From IMG/VR virus record IMGVR_UViG_3300029812_000136: 20,000 bases of DNA; one strand, given 5' to 3'. The first letter of the stretch is position 1. Each line of letters opens with the position of its first letter. Below, in pieces: positions 821 to 19,176 of this stretch. This DNA comes from an uncultured virus (IMG/VR IMGVR_UViG_3300029812_000136) (Duplodnaviria > Heunggongvirae > Uroviricota > Caudoviricetes). Under the pieces are notes generated by a model. The model was not told where the DNA came from. It worked only from the letters and a program-made list of their open reading frames with translations, and did not search any database. A program made the translations under genes and the position numbers.

Positions 821-1155
821 CTAAAATAATACCAAATGATTATAATAGAGACAATATAGTGGAACTTGGTGAGAGCATAGCAAGGGAGATAAACAGAAAA
901 GTGTCAGATGAAGACAGAGTTACAGTCATAAATCTTCTCACATTCAATCTTGTCCTCTTCTCAGACATAAGCATAAGAGACATGGAGTATATTGGTGAAG
1001 ATATCAAACAGATGGCAAGATATTCACATATCGAAATGTTAGAGGAAGAAATAGAAAAACTCAGAAAGGAACTCAAACATCCAATGACAGAGGAAGAGTA
1101 CGAAAAGGCTCAAAAAAGTATCATACAAACGCAAGAAGGAAATAAAGCAGCATGA
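817..1155 (+). CDS. Hypothetical helical protein, paralog of the previous ORF
   Basis: 112-aa ORF, ATGA-coupled at both ends; shares the LG.SI..E...KV....R....N.L, E.IG...K...R and IE.L...L pattern with 545-820. Confidence 0.75.
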   Translation: MTKIIPNDYNRDNIVELGESIAREINRKVSDEDRVTVINLLTFNLVLFSDISIRDMEYIGEDIKQMARYSHIEMLEEEIEKLRKELKHPMTEEEYEKAQKSIIQTQEGNKAA

Positions 1156-1766
1156 TTTCAAATTTTTATCGAGTATGTGGTGAAACAATACAAGAAGTTT
1201 TCCACGCATCTCTCTTTCTCCTTCTTCATAATGGTAAACAAGTCAACATTTCCAAAGATAAAGAAGGAAAACGCAGTGGTGGTCAAACACTCGAACTCCA
1301 AAATCTCTTCATAGAAATACCAGAACCAGATCCTCTCGAAGAAATAAATCTCAAATCATCAAAAGTAACAGAAAAATTCCATGATGGAATGTTACTTTGT
1401 AGTACAAAGGATGTACAATCAAGACGAATAATACAAGAAAAATCAAGAATAATTGAAAAACTAAGCGAGAAAAAAGACACAAGAAGAGCAGTCATAACAG
1501 TCTGGGAAAATACGGATCTTTTTGCGTCTTATGCACCATGTATAACATCAATGCAATTCTTAGTTAGAGACAATTCATTACACCAAACAGCCTTCTTTAG
1601 AAGTCATGACATATGGAATGCTTTCCCTTGGAACACGAAGGGAAATATAACATTTCAAGCAGATATTGCAGAAAAGTTAGATCTTGGTGTTGGTTCTTAT
1701 ATTGAATTAGCAACTTCTGCACATATTTATGAAGTAGACAAAAACAAGGTGAATAAGTTTATATAG
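1152..1766 (+). CDS. thyA: Thymidylate synthase-family protein (archaeal/viral ThyA-like)
   Basis: Motifs DTRRAV, catalytic PC (APCIT), FRSHD, PWN (Asn of dUMP-specific enzymes) and SAHIYE. Confidence 0.8.
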   Translation: MISNFYRVCGETIQEVFHASLFLLLHNGKQVNISKDKEGKRSGGQTLELQNLFIEIPEPDPLEEINLKSSKVTEKFHDGMLLCSTKDVQSRRIIQEKSRIIEKLSEKKDTRRAVITVWENTDLFASYAPCITSMQFLVRDNSLHQTAFFRSHDIWNAFPWNTKGNITFQADIAEKLDLGVGSYIELATSAHIYEVDKNKVNKFI

Positions 1767-3716: not shown

Positions 3717-3865
3717 TAATAAAATCATGGAAATGGAGATATAGATTATTTAATGAATTACCAAAAGTATGTCCATATTGTAATGGTGAAGTTATAGAGA
3801 GAGGTTTTGAAGGTGTTAATTGGAGAGTTGAATGTAGAAGTTGTGAAAGAGTGTTAATAGAGTGA
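3713..3865 (+). CDS. Small zinc-ribbon protein (50 aa; not in ORF track)
   Basis: Manual translation MIIKSWKWRYRLFNELPKVCPYCNGEVIERGFEGVNWRVECRSCERVLIE; two CxxC pairs; ATGA overlap with the upstream gene. Confidence 0.65.
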   Translation: MIIKSWKWRYRLFNELPKVCPYCNGEVIERGFEGVNWRVECRSCERVLIE

Positions 3866-3945
3866 TAAAAAAGTATATGAATATTAGTTGAAAAATAGAA
3901 ATTTTCACCAAATATAGTAGTTTTTGATGCAAATATTGTGTTTTC

Positions 3946-4001
3946 ACCGCAAACCTATTTATATACATATATAAATATATATAAATTGTAAGAGGAGGTG
4001 A
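3946..4001 (+). promoter_or_regulatory. Strong archaeal promoter (BRE-like + TATA) and Shine-Dalgarno of the split capsid-like gene
   Basis: ACCGCAAACC then TTTATATA (3958-3965); GGAGGTGA (3994-4001) 5 nt before ATG 4007. Confidence 0.75.
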
Positions 4002-4006
4002 AAACA

Positions 4007-4455
4007 ATGGACATAAGAAAATTTCTCAAAGACACCAAAGCTCAGATGGGAATGAGTCTGACTGATGTAGGTTTGGCTATAGGTATACTTGCCGTGATAG
4101 GTTTCGTCATACTCTACAGCACCAAGAGGAGTTAGTCCAAGTAAATGTATAATGATAAAAAACAACTTACTCAGGTGTGGAGCAATATGTAACGAAGTCT
4201 ATAGCATCGCAGCCATCTCGTCAGGTAGCATCTTCTATACAGGTGTTCAAAAGGTCACCAAATGGAGAAGAGGTTTAGAAAGTTTATTTTTTAAAATAAA
4301 GAATATAGCATCTCTTAAATTGGTTTTAAACGCTCCTCCAGGTGCAAATCGTGAATACCGGTTACGGGATGTTGCTGATCGCTGTCCTCGCCATGCTGAC
4401 AGGTTTTATAATTTATTACCTCAGAGGTGCAACGGGTGGAGGCGGAACCATATAG
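4007..4455 (+). CDS. Intron-split putative major capsid protein of spindle-shaped-virus type, join(4007..4117,4185..4261,4347..4455), 98 aa
   Basis: Spliced product MDIRKFLKDTKAQMGMSLTDVGLAIGILAVIGFVILYICNEVYSIAAISSGSIFYTGVQKVTKIVNTGYGMLLIAVLAMLTGFIIYYLRGATGGGGTI has a basic leader ending KAQ and two hydrophobic helices joined by a polar linker, as in His1/SSV1-type capsid proteins. The gene has its own promoter, SD and terminator, and both junctions are canonical BHB motifs that restore the frame. Confidence 0.8.
4118..4184 (+). other. BHB intron 1 (67 nt) in the capsid-like mRNA
   Basis: 5' arm CAUA|CUCU|ACA bulge|GCACC; 3' arm GGUGU|GGAG|CAA bulge|UAUG. 4-bp central helix CUCU/GGAG with 3-nt bulges on opposite strands; contains the in-frame stop TAG at 4133. 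Confidence 0.85.
4262..4346 (+). other. BHB intron 2 (85 nt) in the capsid-like mRNA
   Basis: 5' arm GGU|CACC|AAA bulge|UGGAG; 3' arm CUCCA|GGUG|CAA bulge|AUC. 4-bp central helix CACC/GGUG, AU-rich interior; removal fixes a frameshift. Confidence 0.85.
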
Positions 4456-4476
4456 GGAACGAAGACCTGAGAGGGA

Positions 4477-4506
4477 AGGGACGAAGTGTCCCTCTTTTTT
4501 CTTTTC
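4477..4506 (+). terminator. Hairpin plus U-tract terminator after the capsid-like gene
   Basis: AGGGAC-GAAGT-GTCCCT followed by CTTTTTTCTTTT, 21 nt after the spliced stop codon. Confidence 0.7.
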
Positions 4507-4516
4507 CTATAGAGAC

Positions 4517-4984
4517 ATGAGTAAAACGACCATATCCGTTGTGGTTTTGATCACACTTTTGGTGCTTTCGTTATCAGTCATTTCGGTGAATGCATTATTT
4601 CCAAATCCAATCAATGCTACTGGAAATCTAAGCTATGTAAAAGCTGTTAATTTTACATACGTCGCAAATCAGTCTGTAGGAGGGAATGCAGTTAAGACAG
4701 TCGCTTTCAATGTATCAATCAAAACTTTAGGCATTTGGCAGAATCGAACATTGGCAGACAATTATACATACATTCATACAAGTAATCCAAACCCATCAAC
4801 TTTCAATATTGAAGTCTGGGCATGGAATGCAACAGGGAGTGGTAATTTGTCTAATAGCTCAGTAAATATGTCAGCTACAACTTTACAAGCAAAACGATCA
4901 GCACCATCAATGACACCAATATCAATAGTCGTAGCACTGGCTTTGTGGTCAATAATCCTTGCAAAAGTGAAGAGGAGAAAATAA
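4517..4984 (+). CDS. Secreted, C-terminally anchored glycoprotein (candidate virion/surface protein), 155 aa
   Basis: Start at ATG 4517; signal peptide ending VNA; 11 N-X-S/T sequons; C-terminal APSMTP + TM helix + KVKRRK. Confidence 0.75.
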   Translation: MSKTTISVVVLITLLVLSLSVISVNALFPNPINATGNLSYVKAVNFTYVANQSVGGNAVKTVAFNVSIKTLGIWQNRTLADNYTYIHTSNPNPSTFNIEVWAWNATGSGNLSNSSVNMSATTLQAKRSAPSMTPISIVVALALWSIILAKVKRRK

Positions 4985-5102: not shown

Positions 5103-5702
5103 ATGAAAAAACTCCTCCTCTCCATCTTCTTCATAATAACATTCATCAAACTCTCTCTCTCAATTACTCTCCTCTCACCCACAATCGTATTCGACGAGTC
5201 TATCTACTCAATCGCTATCCGATCAATCTGGGAAAATCACACTTATTTCACAGGACGATTTCTCAACTATCCTCAGTACCCACCTCTCTATCCTCTTCTC
5301 CTCAGTCCAGTCGCAACATATATCTATTCAGAGTCTTTTTTCCGTTACGCCATAGCAATTAATTGTATAATCACTTCATCAACAATCTTCCCATCATATT
5401 ACCTCACAAAAGAATATCTCTCAGACCGTGAAAGTCATCTCGTAGCATTCCTCGTCGGAATAATGCCATCAACATTTATTTATTCTTTTATCATGATGGC
5501 AGATTGTCTCTTTTTACCTCTCTTCCTCACATCTGTCTATTTCATGAAAAAGACGCTCGATGAGGACAATTTCAAAAATAATTTCCTCTCAGGTGTGTTC
5601 ATCTCTCTCACATTCCTCACAAAAGTAATTGCAGTAATTCTTGTGTTAGTATATATTATAATAAAGCTGTGGCATTTTGTAGATAAGAAAATTGAGGATT
5701 AG
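5103..5702 (+). CDS. GT-C (PMT/ArnT-like) glycosyltransferase, N-terminal half
   Basis: FDESIY loop, YPPLYPLLL, multiple TM helices, ending shortly after the FLTK motif. Confidence 0.7.
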   Translation: MKKLLLSIFFIITFIKLSLSITLLSPTIVFDESIYSIAIRSIWENHTYFTGRFLNYPQYPPLYPLLLSPVATYIYSESFFRYAIAINCIITSSTIFPSYYLTKEYLSDRESHLVAFLVGIMPSTFIYSFIMMADCLFLPLFLTSVYFMKKTLDEDNFKNNFLSGVFISLTFLTKVIAVILVLVYIIIKLWHFVDKKIED

Positions 5703-5907
5703 GATGAGAATGGTAGAAAATATTTATATTGGAAAAATCTTTTTTATTAATACAATAGTAAATCCATTGATGGTTGTATATCTTTTATTTATGTTGCAAT
5801 ATGCTAAAGTGCCTGGGTTATATGTGTGTCTTGGATACTTTATAGGTTGTTCAGTATTCCAGTTAATTGATTATTTTACTAAGTTGTCGAAGATAAAGGT
5901 GAAATAA
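5692..5907 (+). CDS. Small two-TM membrane protein
   Basis: Two hydrophobic segments; start may be ATG 5704 or 5710. Confidence 0.5.
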   Translation: MRIRMRMVENIYIGKIFFINTIVNPLMVVYLLFMLQYAKVPGLYVCLGYFIGCSVFQLIDYFTKLSKIKVK

Positions 5908-6419: not shown

Positions 6420-6467
6420 GGATGATAATAAGGATGAATTATAACAAAACAATAGGAGGTGATTCTA

Positions 6468-6644
6468 ATGAAAAATAAGCAAAATTCATTGTTCCCAATA
6501 ATTGTCTTTCTTTCAGGAATGACAATAGCAGGCATTGCAGTAATGATTCCTGTTAATTCACCAGCTTTGTCGGCAATTATTGGATTGGGTATTGCTCAGG
6601 CTCTTTTGTCTGCTTTTACAATTTCAAAAATAAAAAGAGAATGA
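6468..6644 (+). CDS. Small two-TM membrane protein
   Basis: GGAGGTGA SD before ATG 6468; two hydrophobic helices; ATGA overlap with the next gene. Confidence 0.6.
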   Translation: MKNKQNSLFPIIVFLSGMTIAGIAVMIPVNSPALSAIIGLGIAQALLSAFTISKIKRE

Positions 6645-9079: not shown

Positions 9080-9235
9080 ATGGTTGATTTGAGAGATGTA
9101 TCCTTTATAGTCCCAACCAATCGTGAAAGTATTCACACAGTTAAATCAATTCCACCAGAATGTGAAATTATCATCCCAAAGTCTTCACCACTCGGTAGAG
9201 CCAGAAATGATGGGATCAAACAAGTCATAAAATAA
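9080..9235 (+). pseudogene. Truncated GT2 glycosyltransferase N-terminus
   Basis: MVDLRDVSFIVPTN...LGRARNDGIKQ then stop just before the expected DxD motif. Confidence 0.65.
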
Positions 9236-9276: not shown

Positions 9277-9443
9277 CTGTAAATATATATATTACATAAG
9301 GGGAATGAGAGGAAAAGTGACAAAACAAAACAATATAAAGTAGTTTTGAGTATCTTACGATAGAATTTTGTTTGATGGAATATCTCAAAATATTTCCTCT
9401 CGTTCTTCCAGTATGTTTTTATGGTGTAAAAATAATTCTTATT

Positions 9444-10316
9444 ATGACAAACAATAATGACGTGAATGTAGATGTAGTAGTTTGCACGTACAAAATGAGG
9501 AAAGATGATGCTGTAAGTTGTGTTATCTCTTTAAAGGAACAGAGATTTCAACCAAAAAAAATTGTTTTGGTTGTTGATAGTGAAACTGAAAAAAATTTCT
9601 ATTCTTCTATTCCTGAATTAAGGAATTCATTAATCAATGTTATAGCATCGAAAAGAAGTGGATTATCTGCTGCAAGGAATTGTGGAATTAGAAATTGTAA
9701 TTGTGATATAGTAACATTTATAGATGATGATGCTGTTGCAGACAAAAACTGGTTATATGAGATAGTAGAGACATTCAAAGATAAAAATATAGTTGTTGTT
9801 GGGGGTCAAGTAAAACCAATTTTTAGTGGAAAAAGAATTAAAGAGTCATTCAATTGGTTAGTAGGTTGTACGGATAAGATGAATACAAGACCTATTGGAT
9901 GCAATATGGCAATAAGAAAAGAGATTCTTGAAGAAGTTGGAGTATTTAATGAAAACTTAGGAAGAGTAAAAAATAGGTTACTTATAGGGGAAGAAACTGA
10001 TTTGTTTTTAAGAATAAAAAAATACAAACCTAAAGCAAAGGTGATTTTTAATCCCAGAGCAGTTGTGTATCACAATATATCAAAAGATAGAACAAAAATA
10101 AAATTCATATTGAAAAGGTCTTTTTATGAGGGATTTGGAAAATTTATGATTGGAAAAAAGTATGGCTTGGATACTGAAAAGTCATATTTAAAATCATATT
10201 TGAAGAAATTAGATTTGTTTACTTTAATAGTATTGTTAGCAGTTGCATGTGGATATATGAAAGGATTTATTACAACTAAGATGAAGTATAGCAGTGATTT
10301 GGAGGAGTACTTATAG
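9444..10316 (+). CDS. GT2 (GT-A) glycosyltransferase, AglG-like
   Basis: VVVCTY, GLSAARN, FIDDDA, GCNMAIRK and GEETDL motifs plus a C-terminal TM; start probably ATG 9444 rather than 9372. Confidence 0.9.
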   Translation: MTNNNDVNVDVVVCTYKMRKDDAVSCVISLKEQRFQPKKIVLVVDSETEKNFYSSIPELRNSLINVIASKRSGLSAARNCGIRNCNCDIVTFIDDDAVADKNWLYEIVETFKDKNIVVVGGQVKPIFSGKRIKESFNWLVGCTDKMNTRPIGCNMAIRKEILEEVGVFNENLGRVKNRLLIGEETDLFLRIKKYKPKAKVIFNPRAVVYHNISKDRTKIKFILKRSFYEGFGKFMIGKKYGLDTEKSYLKSYLKKLDLFTLIVLLAVACGYMKGFITTKMKYSSDLEEYL

Positions 10317-10775: not shown

Positions 10776-11222
10776 ATGGAATTAGATAAAGAATATTTGG
10801 AAATAGTAAAACAAATAGAAGATTTAGATAAGGAAAGATCAGAGAGTGAAATAATTGAATTAGATAAACAAATCAGGATATTACAAGAGAAGAGAATAGT
10901 AATATCAGATAAATATGTCAGGAGACTAAATCCTTTAGTACAAAGAAGAGAAGAAATCTTAAATGATTTCAGAAAGATGTATGATGGAAACAAGAAGAGA
11001 CAATATGGTGTATTAAATCTTTCATACAGAATAACAAAGAGTCTAAAGATACTTGATCCAACTAAAGTAGTAGAAGCTCTCCAAAAAATAGACAAAGTAT
11101 CCAATGGGATAAATTCATTCAATCTAACATTCCTAAGAAAGTTACGAGACACAGAAATATTGAAGGATGATTCAGTACAGTATGAAGAGAAGGTGAACAT
11201 CAGAGTTGAGGAAAATAGATAA
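10776..11222 (+). CDS. Coiled-coil protein, possibly Mu Gam-like DNA end-binding protein
   Basis: Long N-terminal coiled coil followed by KKRQYGVLNLSYR..KSLKILDP.KVVEAL, the layout of Gam/Gp157-like phage proteins. Confidence 0.5.
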   Translation: MELDKEYLEIVKQIEDLDKERSESEIIELDKQIRILQEKRIVISDKYVRRLNPLVQRREEILNDFRKMYDGNKKRQYGVLNLSYRITKSLKILDPTKVVEALQKIDKVSNGINSFNLTFLRKLRDTEILKDDSVQYEEKVNIRVEENR

Positions 11223-12810
11223 TTTAAATGATTATATATTATTAACAGCAATCTTTCTTTTCCATTCAGTCCTGAATATATGGTATATTCACAAAGATAC
11301 TCTCCCACCAAGTTGGGATCCTGCTACTCACGCTCTCTACTCATCTGCGTATTTCCATGGGTTCTTTCCTCAATCACAATTTTATCCACCATTTGTTCAT
11401 TATGTACCAATTCCATTCTACATTCTATTCGGTGAGTCGTTTGATATTGCATGCATTTCAAATATAGTATTTCTTGCCATTCTTCTCTTCTCTGTCTATG
11501 GAATTGGCAAATATCTTTTCAATCGTGAGGTGGGTTTATTTTCATCTCTGATAATTTCTTTCATTCCAATTCTTATCGTCTATCAACGTGATTTCCTCTT
11601 AGACTTTCCTCTAACAGCAATGATTGCTCTATCAATCTACGTCCTTCTCAAATCTGAAAATCTAACAAATATAAAATATTCAATCTTATTCGGGATTTGT
11701 TTCGGTCTTGCAATGTTGACTAAGTGGGCAGCGATTTTCTTCGTAATATCTCCTCTCCTTTGGGTATTCTATCAATCAATAAAGGAAGATAGAATAAAGA
11801 AGTGTGCTTTCTGTGGTAGAATACTAAAAAACAAAACTAAAATAATTCTCAAGGGATTCAGTACTTTCTGTTCTGAAAGACACAAGAAAAGTTTTATAGA
11901 AGAAAATAGAAGAGTATTGACAAGACAACACAATCTTCTTTTCTCCTTAATTTCTTTCATTATAGTAGCAGGATCATGGTATATTCCCAACTATAAAGTC
12001 TTTTTCACTCTTCTGTCTGGTCAGAAGTACTGGGGTTCTGTTGAAGGAGATCCAGTTGGTTTGTCTCTAAGTTCTTTATGGTATTATATTGAAGCTGTTA
12101 ATAAACAAGCATTCCTCTTTCTATCTATTCTCTTTCTCGTCGGATTAATATATCTAATCATAAAGGTAGGTTTGAACAAGAAGATACTATTCACAATATC
12201 AATTCTATTTCCATACATCTCTTTTGTTCTAATTTCAAACAAAGATGTTAGATACACACTTCCATTATTGATCTTTCTTTCAATTGCTTTAGCGTATTCA
12301 TTAATAAACATTGAAAACAAAAAGATAAAATCAATAGCAATATCTATATTGATTGTATTCTGTCTACTCCAAACATCAACAATTACATTTGGGTATCCTT
12401 CATTCGATGTTCCTAATTCCATCTATCCAACACCAAAATCACCTATACAAGAGGATTGGAAGATTGATGAAGTACTGTCTACAATTCAATCACAAGGTAT
12501 AAGACAACCAAATGTTTTAATATTGTATGATTCTTCATATATGAATTGGCGAACGCTACAATATTATGTATTCATAAATCAATATCCAATCAACATCCAA
12601 AACTATGAATTCATAAATGCATATCCACAACAACTAGAGAATTTTGATTTTGTCCTTTATGTTGATGAAGAAAGGAGTACAGCAACACAACAAAAAATAA
12701 TGATTGATAATGCAAATATGTTATTTGAAGCAAATATAAATAATTACATAATGATCAATTCAATAAATTTATCAAACAAAAAGCAAATGGAGGTATATCA
12801 AAGGAAATGA
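11206..12810 (+). CDS. GT-C (ArnT/PMT family) glycosyltransferase with an inserted Zn-finger
   Basis: PPSWDPATH, FYPPF, LAMLTKW, WY.PN and NKDVRYTLP motifs; many TM helices; CAFC...FCSERH insert. Confidence 0.85.
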   Translation: MRKIDNLNDYILLTAIFLFHSVLNIWYIHKDTLPPSWDPATHALYSSAYFHGFFPQSQFYPPFVHYVPIPFYILFGESFDIACISNIVFLAILLFSVYGIGKYLFNREVGLFSSLIISFIPILIVYQRDFLLDFPLTAMIALSIYVLLKSENLTNIKYSILFGICFGLAMLTKWAAIFFVISPLLWVFYQSIKEDRIKKCAFCGRILKNKTKIILKGFSTFCSERHKKSFIEENRRVLTRQHNLLFSLISFIIVAGSWYIPNYKVFFTLLSGQKYWGSVEGDPVGLSLSSLWYYIEAVNKQAFLFLSILFLVGLIYLIIKVGLNKKILFTISILFPYISFVLISNKDVRYTLPLLIFLSIALAYSLINIENKKIKSIAISILIVFCLLQTSTITFGYPSFDVPNSIYPTPKSPIQEDWKIDEVLSTIQSQGIRQPNVLILYDSSYMNWRTLQYYVFINQYPINIQNYEFINAYPQQLENFDFVLYVDEERSTATQQKIMIDNANMLFEANINNYIMINSINLSNKKQMEVYQRK

Positions 12811-13428: not shown

Positions 13429-13750
13429 TGAGAAGATTTTTAAGGAATATTGGAGAAATCAAATATTGTTAGAAAGAATACTAAATAAGTATTGTATAGG
13501 GAAATGTTGGCTTTGTTCTTCTTGTTTCCGTGTTGAAGATGGTGTATATAATGCACAATATATATTATCAGTTTGCAAGAGAGAGTATATAAGGAATGTT
13601 GTTGGTAAATTGGAAGATATAACTAAAAATTATGGAATTCAATCACATTGTCTTGGTGATGATTTGCAAAACAAATGGTATAGTGAAGTAGTAGAGGAAA
13701 CAAGAGAGAAATCATTTTTTCATGTGATAAAAGATAGGTTTTTCAAATGA
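13421..13750 (+). CDS. Hypothetical Cys-rich protein
   Basis: AGGAGGT SD before ATG 13421; CIGKCWLCSSC cluster. Confidence 0.6.
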   Translation: MDNEKIFKEYWRNQILLERILNKYCIGKCWLCSSCFRVEDGVYNAQYILSVCKREYIRNVVGKLEDITKNYGIQSHCLGDDLQNKWYSEVVEETREKSFFHVIKDRFFK

Positions 13751-14862
13751 AAGTTGGCATATTTCATTGGAGTTTTGATGAACTTGGTGGAGGAGAGGTT
13801 TTATCTTCGTATCTTGCAAAGGCGTTAGATACAAGTGTTTTTTCTATTATCAAGGATCCAGAAAAAAATAAGTTAGGTTTCATAGATGTGTCACCAAAAC
13901 TTCCTTTGATAACAAGATATATAAGAAAAATCAGGAGTCTTGATTATTTGTGTTGGAGTAATGTAGATATAAACGATTTTGGTGATTTTGATGTTGTCAT
14001 AACAAGTGGTCTGACAGCGAGAGCAATAATTACACCAGATTCTGTACCACATATACATTATAATCATTCACCAGCGAGATGGTTATATGATTTGTGGCAT
14101 TATAGAAGAAAAAGTAAAGGATGGCTAAAACAGAACTTTATTCTTCCTTTAGCTGGTGATTTTTTCAGAATGTATGATCAATCTGTTGATAATAGAGTGG
14201 ATTATTACTTCAGTAATTCTGAAATAACACAAAGAAGATTATGGAAATATCTGAAACGAGAATCTATAATTCTCTATCCGCCAGTAGAGACAAAGAAATA
14301 TAAAAATTCTGAGTCTGAAGATTATTATCTTTTTATTGGAAGATTGTGGGAAGAAAAAAGACCAGAAGTTGCAATTGCAGCTTGTTTACAATTAAATAAA
14401 AAGTTAGTCATAATTGGTGATGAAAATAAAAAATTGATACACAAATACAAAGATAATTCTCTAATAGATTTCAGAGGTAATGTAACAGAACAAGAAAAGA
14501 TAGATCTATTGTCTTCATGTAAGTGTGTTTTATATCCAGCAAAAGCAGAGGATTACGGAATCGTTCCTTTTGAATCTTTCGCATCAGGAAAGCCAGTGAT
14601 ATGTTCAAATGATGGATTTCCACCTCTTGTTGTAGGACAAAATAATGGGATTGTTTCTGATGGAAGTATTTCAGGTATAAAGAAAGCCATACAAGAGATC
14701 GAAGTGTTGAATTATGATCCAGACAAACTAAGAAAATTTGCGAGTAAATATGACTTTTCTATATTTAAGAAAAAACTAATGTACTATATGAATATATTTC
14801 AAGAAGATTTTGAGCAAAGGAAGGAGTTTGTAAAAAGTGTTAAGTCAACCACTCCTCCCTAA
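13747..14862 (+). CDS. GT4 (GT-B) glycosyltransferase; last residues supplied by the IS end
   Basis: GGGE, IGRL..EK and EDYGIVPFESFASGKPVI motifs. Confidence 0.9.
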   Translation: MKVGIFHWSFDELGGGEVLSSYLAKALDTSVFSIIKDPEKNKLGFIDVSPKLPLITRYIRKIRSLDYLCWSNVDINDFGDFDVVITSGLTARAIITPDSVPHIHYNHSPARWLYDLWHYRRKSKGWLKQNFILPLAGDFFRMYDQSVDNRVDYYFSNSEITQRRLWKYLKRESIILYPPVETKKYKNSESEDYYLFIGRLWEEKRPEVAIAACLQLNKKLVIIGDENKKLIHKYKDNSLIDFRGNVTEQEKIDLLSSCKCVLYPAKAEDYGIVPFESFASGKPVICSNDGFPPLVVGQNNGIVSDGSISGIKKAIQEIEVLNYDPDKLRKFASKYDFSIFKKKLMYYMNIFQEDFEQRKEFVKSVKSTTPP

Positions 14863-15110
14863 ATCCTAACAGGTTTGAGGAAGGGACTTGTAGATACAAG
14901 CTCTGGGTTGATTAGGAGGCATATATGCAAAACATAGAAGCAGAAGTTAGGAACGTGAAATACATACACACCTTGGAGTGCTCCACAAGCTCCAAGCTCT
15001 GTGACTCTGCGATTAAACATGACTGTGGGGTAGGTCAAGTGTTACAGAGTCCAAAAACCATTCCTAACAACTCCGATGTGGACCAACACTCTGGCAAGAG
15101 TGAACAGGAC
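14844..15110 (+). ncRNA. omega-RNA (HEARO-like) scaffold; predicted 5' guide in the flank at about 14824-14843
   Basis: GTCAACC pairs with GGTTGAT (14906-14912); CTTGGAG/CTCCAAG stem; conserved-looking ACACACC, GCTCTG, ATTAAACA and TAACA elements directly upstream of iscB. Confidence 0.8.
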
Positions 15111-16301
15111 TTGCGAGTCCCTGTTTTAAACATGCGTAATAAACCACTAATGCCAACAACACCACAAAAAGCAAGACATCTATTAGAAACAAGTAAAGCA
15201 AAGGTAGTAACCAGAAATCCATTTGTCATCCAACTTCTGTATCCAACAGGTGAATCAAAACAGGACATAACTTTGGGTATAGATGCAGGCTACTCAAAAA
15301 TAGGGTACAGTGCAGTAACAGAAACACAAGAACTTATGACAGGTGAATTAAAACTAAGAACAAATATCAAGCAATTATTAGATAAGAAGCGAGGAGCACG
15401 TAGATTAAAACGCAATAAATTGTGGTACAGACAACCAAGGTTTCTCAATCGATCCAAACCAAAAGGATGGATACCACCATCTTTAGATCACAAATTACAA
15501 ACTCACATCAGACTGATCGAATGTCTAAAACAAATCTTACCAATCACAAAAGTAATAGTAGAAGTATCATCTTTCGATACACAGAAAATGCAAAATCCTG
15601 AAATCTCTGGTATCGAATACCAGCAAGGGGAACTGCAAGGTTATGAAGTCCGTGAATACTTATTAGAAAAGTGGCATCGAGAGTGCGCATATTGCGGTGC
15701 TAAAAACATACCTTTGGAAGTAGAACACATTATACCAAAAATACGAGGAGGTTCTAACAGAGTATCCAATCTCACCATGAGTTGTCATGACTGCAATGAG
15801 AAAAAAGGCAGTCAAACTGCAGCAGAATTTGGTTACCCAAACATCCAAAAACAAGCAAAACAATCTCTCAAAGCACCTGCATTCATGAATACCATCCGTT
15901 GGAAATTAGTAAATACATTCAATTGCAACTGGACTTACGGTAGCATAACGAAACACAACAGAGTAAAGCTTGGCTTAGAGAAATCACATGTAAATGATGC
16001 GTTTGTTATTGCAAATGGTGCAGGGCAGGAGAGAAGTAAATCTCATAGAGGAACGCAAACAAGACGGAACAACAGGAGCATGCAAATGAATAGAAAAGGG
16101 TTCAAAGTATCTATAAGAAGGCAGCGATACAAACTACAACCAAACGACTTGGTGAAGTTTAGAGGTATGTTCTGCCGGGTCAAAGGAGTATTCAATTATG
16201 GCAAATGGGTAAGAATAGTAACAAAAGCGGGAGAAGTAATCAATACTAACATTAAGAATGTAGGAGTGTTGAAATATGGGAAAGGAATACAATGGGAGTG
16301 A
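15111..16301 (+). CDS. iscB: IscB RNA-guided endonuclease (PLMP, split RuvC, HNH)
   Basis: KPLMP, RuvC-I LGIDAG, Arg-rich bridge helix, RuvC-II VIVEV, HNH CAYC...EHIIP..RGGSN..SNL...CHDCN and RuvC-III SHVNDA all intact. Core starts at TTG 15111; an alternative in-frame ATG lies at 14925. Confidence 0.95.
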   Translation: MRVPVLNMRNKPLMPTTPQKARHLLETSKAKVVTRNPFVIQLLYPTGESKQDITLGIDAGYSKIGYSAVTETQELMTGELKLRTNIKQLLDKKRGARRLKRNKLWYRQPRFLNRSKPKGWIPPSLDHKLQTHIRLIECLKQILPITKVIVEVSSFDTQKMQNPEISGIEYQQGELQGYEVREYLLEKWHRECAYCGAKNIPLEVEHIIPKIRGGSNRVSNLTMSCHDCNEKKGSQTAAEFGYPNIQKQAKQSLKAPAFMNTIRWKLVNTFNCNWTYGSITKHNRVKLGLEKSHVNDAFVIANGAGQERSKSHRGTQTRRNNRSMQMNRKGFKVSIRRQRYKLQPNDLVKFRGMFCRVKGVFNYGKWVRIVTKAGEVINTNIKNVGVLKYGKGIQWE

Positions 16302-17731: not shown

Positions 17732-17992
17732 ATGAGTAAAGAACTGATTGTACATATAGTAGTGCCATTGACTATGATAGTGATCATATTATGTGTTGTT
17801 AATACTATAAATACTATAATGATTAACACAAGTTTTGTAGAAACTATCTATGTTCCCCTGTCTATATGGAAGCATCTATTGTTTTTTGGAGCACTTGGAT
17901 TGTTCATCTTTCTTTTTGTGCCTTTTTCATGTAATGGTATTCCATATATCTATTGGGTTATTCGTTTTTTTGAAAAGGAGGAGAAGAAGTGA
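17732..17992 (+). CDS. Small membrane protein
   Basis: Two hydrophobic helices; GGAG SD; GTGA overlap with the next gene. Confidence 0.6.
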   Translation: MSKELIVHIVVPLTMIVIILCVVNTINTIMINTSFVETIYVPLSIWKHLLFFGALGLFIFLFVPFSCNGIPYIYWVIRFFEKEEKK

Positions 17993-19176
17993 ATGAAACA
18001 TTTACAAGCATTACTCAATTCCTTCTTTCTCCACTCAAAATTTCAAAGATAATTTGGGATTACAAACATTCACTTTTTTACGTGACAAAAAAGCGGGGAT
18101 TATGTTCAGCTTGCAAATTCCTCTTCGCAAAGATAACTGTTGCTGATGAAGGTGGAGAAATATCCTTCCTCGATCCTTTATATCGGGAATTTCCTTCTCT
18201 ATGCAAATATCCATATAAAATAGAAGTGGAAATGTCTTCGATTTGTCTTCGCATGTGTCTTCTTTGTGAGCACACGTATTGGGACGAGAAGGATTGGCAG
18301 ATCAGCTTTAAAGAATTTGTCAATCTCATAGATCAATTCCCAAATCTTCGATGGATAAATACAACAGGCGAGGGATCAGCATTTCTAAACAAGGATTTCT
18401 ACAAAATTCTTCAATATCTTCGCAATCGTGACATCTCAGTCAACTTTGTAGATGAATTCGAATACATAAATGAACGATGGGCAAGAAGAATAATTGATTT
18501 AGGTATAACGTGCATATGGATCTCAATGGACGGTGCAACCAAAGAAACTTATGAATCAATAAAGGTCGGTTGTAACTACGATAAAATTGTCAATAATATC
18601 ATCAAATTTGGTGAATTAAAGAGGGAGATGAAAACACTCTTGCCAACGCTCTGCTTCAGGTACATTGTCAACAAGCTCAATGTCCATGAAGTCCCAGATT
18701 TTGTAGATAAAGTGGCATCTTTTAATGTCTTGGGTGAGGGGAGTCGTGTTGAATTTGCTGGTCTTTTAACATTCCCAGAAATTGAACACTTATATATGTG
18801 GATTCCTCCCAGCATAAAGGAAGAGGCTATAAGAAGAGGCAAAAAGTATGATGTTCACATAACATTTGCTCATACCTCGGAACTTCCGTCTCCACAGATG
18901 TGTGCAGCCTGGTGTGAACCGTATGTAATGATGGAAGGGTTTGTTGTCTCGTGTTGTGCGGTCATGATGTCCAATCGTCGAGAATTTTTACGTAAGTATG
19001 CATTCGGAAACATAAATGAACAATCTTTTGAGGAGATCTGGAGCTCAGAAAGATATAAAAAATTCAGACAGATGGTCACAAACAAGTCCGAAAAAGTCCC
19101 AATACTTTGTGCAGGCTGTCGAGCGTATGATATGTCTGAACGTGAGAAAAAGTATGGAGTGAGTGAAGAGGTGTAA
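17989..19176 (+). CDS. Radical SAM protein with SPASM/twitch domain
   Basis: CLRMCLLC (CxxxCxxC), ISMDGA, and C-terminal C...SCC...FGNINEQSFEEIWSS...CAGC. Confidence 0.9.
   Translation: MNETFTSITQFLLSPLKISKIIWDYKHSLFYVTKKRGLCSACKFLFAKITVADEGGEISFLDPLYREFPSLCKYPYKIEVEMSSICLRMCLLCEHTYWDEKDWQISFKEFVNLIDQFPNLRWINTTGEGSAFLNKDFYKILQYLRNRDISVNFVDEFEYINERWARRIIDLGITCIWISMDGATKETYESIKVGCNYDKIVNNIIKFGELKREMKTLLPTLCFRYIVNKLNVHEVPDFVDKVASFNVLGEGSRVEFAGLLTFPEIEHLYMWIPPSIKEEAIRRGKKYDVHITFAHTSELPSPQMCAAWCEPYVMMEGFVVSCCAVMMSNRREFLRKYAFGNINEQSFEEIWSSERYKKFRQMVTNKSEKVPILCAGCRAYDMSEREKKYGVSEEV

Follow-up and report, generated by a model that had tools for sequence, protein, structure and literature searches.

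The question raised by positions 4007 to 4455 of this DNA is whether three short reading frames make up one intron-containing gene and, if so, whether its product is the coat protein of a virus. The window is the whole stretch of DNA analyzed here, 20 kb of a contig of 75,591 nt. ORF calling breaks the locus into fragments of 45, 122, and 37 aa, the 122-aa fragment being listed as P0002 in the protein collection, and the earlier note had read them as parts of a single 98-aa product joined by splicing. Judged from the letters, the best explanation appears to be one gene and not three fragments, with the following putative layout.

3956..3987, + strand: promoter-like stretch, rich in A+T, that holds TTTATATA (3958-3965) and boxes of the TATATAAA type, read from the letters; putative archaeal TATA box
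3994..4000, + strand: Shine-Dalgarno sequence GGAGGTG, 6 nt ahead of the ATG at 4007
4007..4117, + strand: exon 1, 37 codons, encoding a basic leader with K-A-Q at its end, then a short run of polar residues, then hydrophobic helix 1
4118..4184, + strand: intron 1, 67 nt; the exon-1 frame meets a stop at 4133
4185..4261, + strand: exon 2, 77 nt, encoding the inter-helix linker
4262..4346, + strand: intron 2, 85 nt
4347..4455, + strand: exon 3, 109 nt including the stop, encoding hydrophobic helix 2 and a Gly-rich tail
4477..4503, + strand: terminator-like hairpin of 7 bp with a T run behind it, located after the gene's stop

The sequence GGAGGTG occurs twice in the 20-kb window, at 3994, ahead of the spliced gene, and at 6455, and a terminator follows the gene, in agreement with the strong expression signals that had been claimed for it. 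With this Shine-Dalgarno sequence and terminator, the locus looks like a strongly expressed single-gene unit. Without splicing, reading from the ATG at 4007 ends at the stop codon at 4133-4135, after 42 codons. Exon 2 lacks a ribosome site or start signals of its own, as does exon 3, the frame of which is shut upstream by a stop at 4327. The peptide pieces named in the earlier note all lie where it had placed them, and its length of 98 aa was correct; its list had skipped MGMSLTD (after the leader), the Cys before NEVYS, and YG before helix 2. Of the stretch that it gave as ending "...VILYI," the first three residues (ILY) lie in exon 1 (4007-4117), and the linker begins at 4185.

Archaeal bulge-helix-bulge (BHB) motifs are cleaved between bulge bases 2 and 3, according to the available excerpt of a study of such introns (PMC2738675). 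A strict geometry scan for hBHBh' motifs, comprising an outer helix, a 4-bp central helix, two 3-nt bulges on opposite strands, and an inner helix, found one motif per junction, and both have the canonical archaeal form.

4108..4123, + strand: BHB 1, 5' half, with outer CATA, central CTCT, bulge ACA (cut after 4117), and inner GCACC
4174..4189, + strand: BHB 1, 3' half, with GGTGT, GGAG, bulge CAA (cut after 4184), and TATG
4253..4267, + strand: BHB 2, 5' half, with GGT, CACC, bulge AAA (cut after 4261), and TGGAG
4336..4350, + strand: BHB 2, 3' half, with CTCCA, GGTG, bulge CAA (cut after 4346), and ATC

Cuts placed by this rule give exons totaling 297 nt, which equals 98 codons and a stop, with no internal stops. 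At intron 1, no fold has a lower energy than the BHB, and at intron 2 the BHB comes within 0.6 kcal/mol of the minimum. At both introns the outer helix is lengthened by further exon-exon pairing; the fold-stability z-scores of -1.2 and -1.9 are not unusually low. Positions 3850-4650 have no match in Rfam at E values up to 1. A BHB-like motif by itself is no more than chance would provide. The window contains 121 loosely defined BHB-like motifs, compared with 62 to 100 in ten shuffles, and 34 motifs of a stricter class on the + strand, compared with 21 +/- 5.5 in 30 shuffles, and a window-wide scan showed that chance motifs are able to join many adjacent ORFs. When the whole window was searched for other genes split by introns, the output was too noisy to be usable. 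A 46-nt intron candidate at 5701-5746, after a PMT_2 ORF, gained no support from the paralogue at 11206-12810. The idea that introns 1 and 2 are paralogues was also rejected; their alignment shows only an A+T-rich likeness, and the CACCAA that they share sits in different parts of the two motifs.

The support exceeding chance comes from the sole relative found, P0001, the predicted intron-1 cut sites reproducing its residue spacing exactly. This 88-aa protein, encoded on one 2,827-nt contig, was the only match to exon 1 in an exhaustive HMMER search of 1.84 billion representatives (E value, 7.6e-4). Exon 1 shares 71% identity with its residues 1-35, and exon 2 shares 56% identity with it. P0001 is contiguous over the intron-1 site, reading IIY and then IVNEIYG where ILY at the end of exon 1 is joined to ICNEVYS at the start of exon 2, and the residue count from GFV to NE[VI]Y is the same in the spliced product and P0001 (alignment A1). 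By our own estimate, from about 34 motifs per 20 kb and about 80 allowed lengths, a chance motif would give exactly the 67-nt deletion with a probability of ~1e-4. P0001 has an insert of its own, 14 aa in the middle of helix 1 (residues 36-49), three codons upstream of the intron-1 site, and an unrelated tail (residues 71-88) that diverges before the intron-2 site, so P0001 also seems to be interrupted, at other sites, which suggests that introns lie at different positions in the two genes. The basic leader and K-A-Q are kept in P0001; the next 6 to 7 residues, including the Asp, are not kept, and in both proteins a run of 7 to 9 polar residues with an Asp among them follows K-A/Q.

Further searches found the hairpin-protein family to be very small, with two members among about 15 billion proteins. 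With alignment A1 as the query, only P0001 and the window's own ORF were matched in the protein collection, and a word-indexed protein search with exon 1, covering proteins of similar and of greater length, gave no relatives. In tblastn searches of 50,697 phage and virus records, exon 1 matched nothing and exon 3 gave only chance matches, to coliphages, with E values of at least 2. No relatives of P0001 or of four neighbor proteins were found in IMG/VR, where two degenerate motif scans returned 0 matches and 2 chance matches, respectively. A scan for the motif AIGILAVIGF returned 7 loci in JGI metagenomes and 26 loci in GTDB genomes, none of them related on inspection.

The spliced 98-aa product is borne out in silico by the strict motifs, the open frame, two hydrophobic segments, and the homologue spacing; that splicing takes place in vivo is our inference. 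The hydropathy profile has two strongly hydrophobic segments, at about residues 20-40 and 70-87, and the predicted order of parts is a basic leader ending K-A-Q, helix 1, a moderately hydrophobic linker of about 25 to 30 aa, helix 2, and a Gly-rich tail. This profile is best explained by a two-helix (helical-hairpin) membrane protein, and it is highly probable, on the sequence evidence, that the locus is a spliced gene encoding such a protein. The spliced product has no match in Pfam, PHROG, or NCBIfam or in a PDB sequence search, and every score in the ESM Atlas is below 0.9.

The earlier note had likened this product to the major capsid protein of spindle-shaped viruses, and the likeness holds in size, in helix-loop-helix hydropathy, and in the K-A/Q site; in sequence and profile similarity it does not. 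The available excerpt of PMC9351363 describes SSV19 VP1 as a curved hydrophobic hairpin of 84 modeled residues, with the basic N terminus and the C terminus facing inward and the loop facing outward, and the major capsid protein (MCP) of NSV1 has 81 aa and two hydrophobic helices (PMC8491892). For new spindle viruses of methanogens, the capsid protein was recognized with HHpred probabilities of 95 to 99% (PMC9796341). The precursor of 98 aa lies inside the VP1-type range of ~70 to 145 aa (the SSV1 VP1 ORF has 144 aa, and His1 VP21 has 73 aa), and with the VP1 proteins of SSV1 and SSV19, His1 VP21, and the NSV1 MCP it shares this size class and, going by hydropathy, a predicted pair of long hydrophobic helices with a loop. 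In a fusellovirus alignment of eight VP1 and seven VP3 sequences (15 rows), K-[GA]/E stands a few residues ahead of helix 1 in seven of the eight VP1 rows, the SMF1 row being cut before this region. Proteolytic processing is given as probable in the SSV-K1 record, and we take the cut in SSV1 VP1 to fall between G and E. The product described here resembles the SSV1/SSV19 VP1 type in its basic N-terminal part, in a K-[GA]/[EQ] site shortly before helix 1, and in its stand-alone, strongly signaled gene. In contrast to the VP1 type, its linker is longer, partly hydrophobic, and without an N-x-S/T sequon, its C terminus is Gly rich rather than Lys/Tyr rich, and its gene is split by two introns. 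The loop of SSV19 VP1, at 9 residues in the available excerpt of PMC9351363, is also shorter than the linker found here.

Comparison with known coat proteins, proposed in the earlier note, gave no significant similarity in sequence or profile tests to SSV1 VP1 or VP3, His1 VP21, PAV1 ORF121, or the STSV1 proteins. Against global shuffles, the pairwise scores reached z values of 4.8 for PAV1 ORF121 and 3.5 for SSV1 VP1. Hydropathy-preserving block shuffles reached the observed score in 7 of 500 cases for PAV1 ORF121 (before correction for six comparisons), 22 of 500 for STSV1 ORF39, 35 of 500 for VP1, 109 of 500 for VP21, and all 500 for VP3. In raw Smith-Waterman comparisons with 30 natural two-helix ORFs, PAV1 ORF121, SSV1 VP1, and STSV1 ORF39 took the top three places; when scores were z-normalized over 41 decoys, a set to which PAV1 ORF121 did not belong, known virion proteins did not stand out. 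In hhalign, the spliced protein matched the 15-row VP1/VP3 profile, which is shallow, with a probability of <1%, a test that is insensitive because His1 VP21 reached only 17% and PAV1 ORF121 reached only 0.3%. PAV1 ORF121, which we take to be the coat protein of Pyrococcus abyssi virus 1 (its record says only "membrane protein"), gave the best pairwise score among the proteins compared (56), with a full-length and colinear alignment. STSV1 ORF39, annotated as a virion structural protein and encoded beside the major head protein ORF40, has two helices and a Gly run, as found here, and scored weakly against the spliced protein (z, 2.2). The Bicaudaviridae-type head protein STSV1 ORF40 itself (~140 aa, soluble, and helical) scored below the shuffle mean (z, -1.4). 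The STSV1 genome, at 75,294 bp, is near the contig in length. The further claim that the element is a large spindle-shaped virus gained no support; nothing in the 20 kb analyzed of the 75.6-kb contig shows a spindle-shaped virus. We infer the processing of the protein, its presence in virions, and virion shape, and a spindle shape would be a guess. The coat-protein identity is proposed as a working hypothesis drawn from architecture and context, not from homology, and it is tentative, its chances being somewhat short of even.

All of the sizeable ORFs of the window share a strand, and the majority match no family. The ORF that follows the spliced gene is as follows.

4517..4984, + strand: neighbor of 155 aa, with an N-terminal hydrophobic segment, 11 N-x-S/T sequons (counted by eye), and a C-terminal membrane anchor

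This 155-aa protein has no family match and is possibly a glycosylated surface protein belonging to the same module as the spliced gene. Genes of the archaeal N-glycosylation type lie near the spliced gene, and the best NCBIfam matches of its neighbors are methanogen-type ThyA, AglG (GT2), Agl16 (GT4), and Agl23 (PMT_2 protein). A dense glycosylation set occupies positions 5103-5702, 9372-10316, 11206-12810, and 13747-14862, beside the 155-aa protein, and includes two membrane glycosyltransferases of the PMT_2 type (Agl23 is the best match of one of them), an AglG-like GT2, and an Agl16-like GT4. Immediately upstream of the complete GT2 gene, a 51-aa ORF at 9080-9235 (+) resembles, by eye, the N-terminal beginning of a family-2 glycosyltransferase and is possibly the remnant of a gene. 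The short thymidylate synthase at 1152-1766 (+), of 204 aa, has TIGR03283 as its best model (positions 7-200/201; E value, 2e-26; below the curated cutoff), and this methanogen-type match is a weak hint at the host group. At 6468-6644 (+), behind the window's other GGAGGTG, lies a 58-aa ORF for a two-helix hydrophobic protein that belongs to no family and does not resemble the spliced product (z, 0.26). This small protein may be another structural protein or the actual coat protein. At 14844-16301 (+), a HEARO RNA, matched over its full length (Rfam RF02033; 109.5 bits), lies directly ahead of a gene for a 458-aa RRXRR and HNH protein and extends into the start of that gene; the protein shares about 40% identity with annotated IscB RNA-guided endonucleases of bacterial plasmids, and the two make up a predicted IscB/omega-RNA unit within an archaeal-looking element. 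The same one-strand array holds, at 17989-19176 (+), a gene for a 395-aa radical SAM/SPASM maturase-like protein, with a tungsten-cofactor oxidoreductase maturase as its best model, well below the cutoff.

No HK97, jelly-roll, capsid, portal, or terminase family was found in the 20-kb window, a tRNA scan of the window found none, and none of the ORFs of SSV1, His1, PAV1, and the first 50 kb of STSV1 matched in it by tblastn. Neither the window nor the locus had a match among phages (INPHARED) or plasmids (PLSDB) by megablast and blastn, and at the sensitivities used IMG/VR, INPHARED, and PLSDB contained no relatives. Companion genes of the fusellovirus kind were not found in the window. The gene context appears to point to archaea. 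A viral nature of the element is likely.

A spliced gene need not encode a coat protein. The hairpin protein may instead be a minor virion or envelope protein or a membrane protein related to egress, superinfection exclusion, or transport, and this is a distinct possibility, though on balance a doubtful one. No homology to any coat protein was detectable, and archaeal viruses have several small proteins with two helices, a single one of these proteins being the coat protein; in the record of His1, for example, two transmembrane regions are predicted for each of five ORFs. The 58-aa ORF at 6468-6644 is a second candidate with an equally strong Shine-Dalgarno sequence, and a family of two members would be odd for the coat of a widespread virus group and fits an accessory gene. 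However, the single-gene layout, the strongest translation signal, and the gene's own terminator suggest high expression, the kept K-A/Q site parallels the corresponding region of VP1, and a sequon-rich anchored protein and glycosylation genes come after the gene.

It is improbable that the inserts stay in the RNA. The locus would then represent either a gene in decay or frames connected by ribosomal frameshifting, and the 98-aa protein would never be made. P0001 is interrupted too, BHB motifs are frequent by chance, and a connection of the frames by frameshifting is formally conceivable, with reading open from 4101 for exon 2 and from 4330 for exon 3. Nevertheless, strict motifs are present at both junctions, the intron-1 cut sites fit the spacing of P0001 to the residue, with the small chance probability estimated above, the promoter, Shine-Dalgarno sequence, and terminator are intact, and the coding sequence is kept in two relatives with inserts at different sites. 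Archaeal prepilin sites resemble a [KR]-[GA]/Q pattern, and such a site is kept in the spliced product and P0001, but the class III reading of K-A/Q in the earlier note fits poorly. It is very improbable that a prepilin peptidase cuts after K-A and that the product is a type IV pilin-like protein of a filament and not of a capsid, given that the class III signal and archaeal pilin and archaellin N-terminal models of Pfam and NCBIfam were unmatched at E values up to 10, that the polar residues, including the Asp, keep the hydrophobic domain from following the site immediately, and that a second hydrophobic C-terminal helix and a length of 98 aa leave no room for a globular pilin domain.

On the reading preferred here, a spliced gene for a coat or structural protein, a single-gene transcript would arise from the A+T-rich archaeal-type promoter and would bear two canonical BHB introns of 67 and 85 nt. 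The tRNA-splicing endonuclease of the host (EndA) would cut between bulge bases 2 and 3, and the exons would be joined by a host RNA ligase, so that the full 98-aa protein would be encoded by the spliced mRNA only, the unspliced RNA stopping after 42 codons. The product, possibly trimmed after K-A, would be an abundant coat or structural protein in the virion of a virus-like element of archaea, 75.6 kb or more in length, and it would work like SSV1/SSV19 VP1, with both termini toward the DNA and the loop outward. Taken as a whole, this proposal, which combines splicing of the gene with a coat or structural role for its abundant hairpin product in an archaeal virus-like element, is plausible, if a little less than probable. 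Its narrower form, in which the main coat-protein gene of an archaeal virus needs host EndA to remove two strict BHB introns, is unlikely on present evidence.

If that narrower form is true, coat-protein production would be tied to host RNA processing, viral late-gene expression could depend on host EndA, and among the coat-protein genes of prokaryotic viruses, no earlier one would be known to require tRNA-type splicing. No publication pairing BHB introns with a major capsid protein was found in the literature searched, and in the excerpts available of the archaeal-virus and viral-genome literature, no BHB intron in a viral protein gene was found. The sole relative known has its inserts at other sites, so the introns would be mobile elements of the tRNA type that colonize a viral structural gene, and strict introns at differing sites would show that tRNA-type introns move into viral mRNAs. 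Such an element would be scored as lacking any structural gene, because gene callers fragment the spliced gene, and the candidate coat proteins of archaeal virions would gain a very rare hairpin-protein family.

A few cellular protein-coding genes are known to contain tRNA-type introns. The available excerpt of PMC2738675 describes BHB introns in the pre-mRNA of crenarchaeal cbf5, with sizes of 16 to 44 bp in cbf5 and 11 to 175 nt in tRNA genes, and refers to an archaeal virus with putative introns of 12 bp, the splicing of which was not demonstrated there. As far as that excerpt goes, the introns described here share the motif and the cut rule of the BHB introns of cbf5, tRNA, and rRNA genes, and their sizes lie inside the known range. 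Most of the cbf5 motifs are relaxed, whereas those found here are strict (PMC2738675, available excerpt) and could, on the same source, be cleavable by any EndA type. In addition, cbf5 is a cellular housekeeping gene, whereas here a mobile element carries two introns within a single small gene, and the insert sites differ between the two known relatives.
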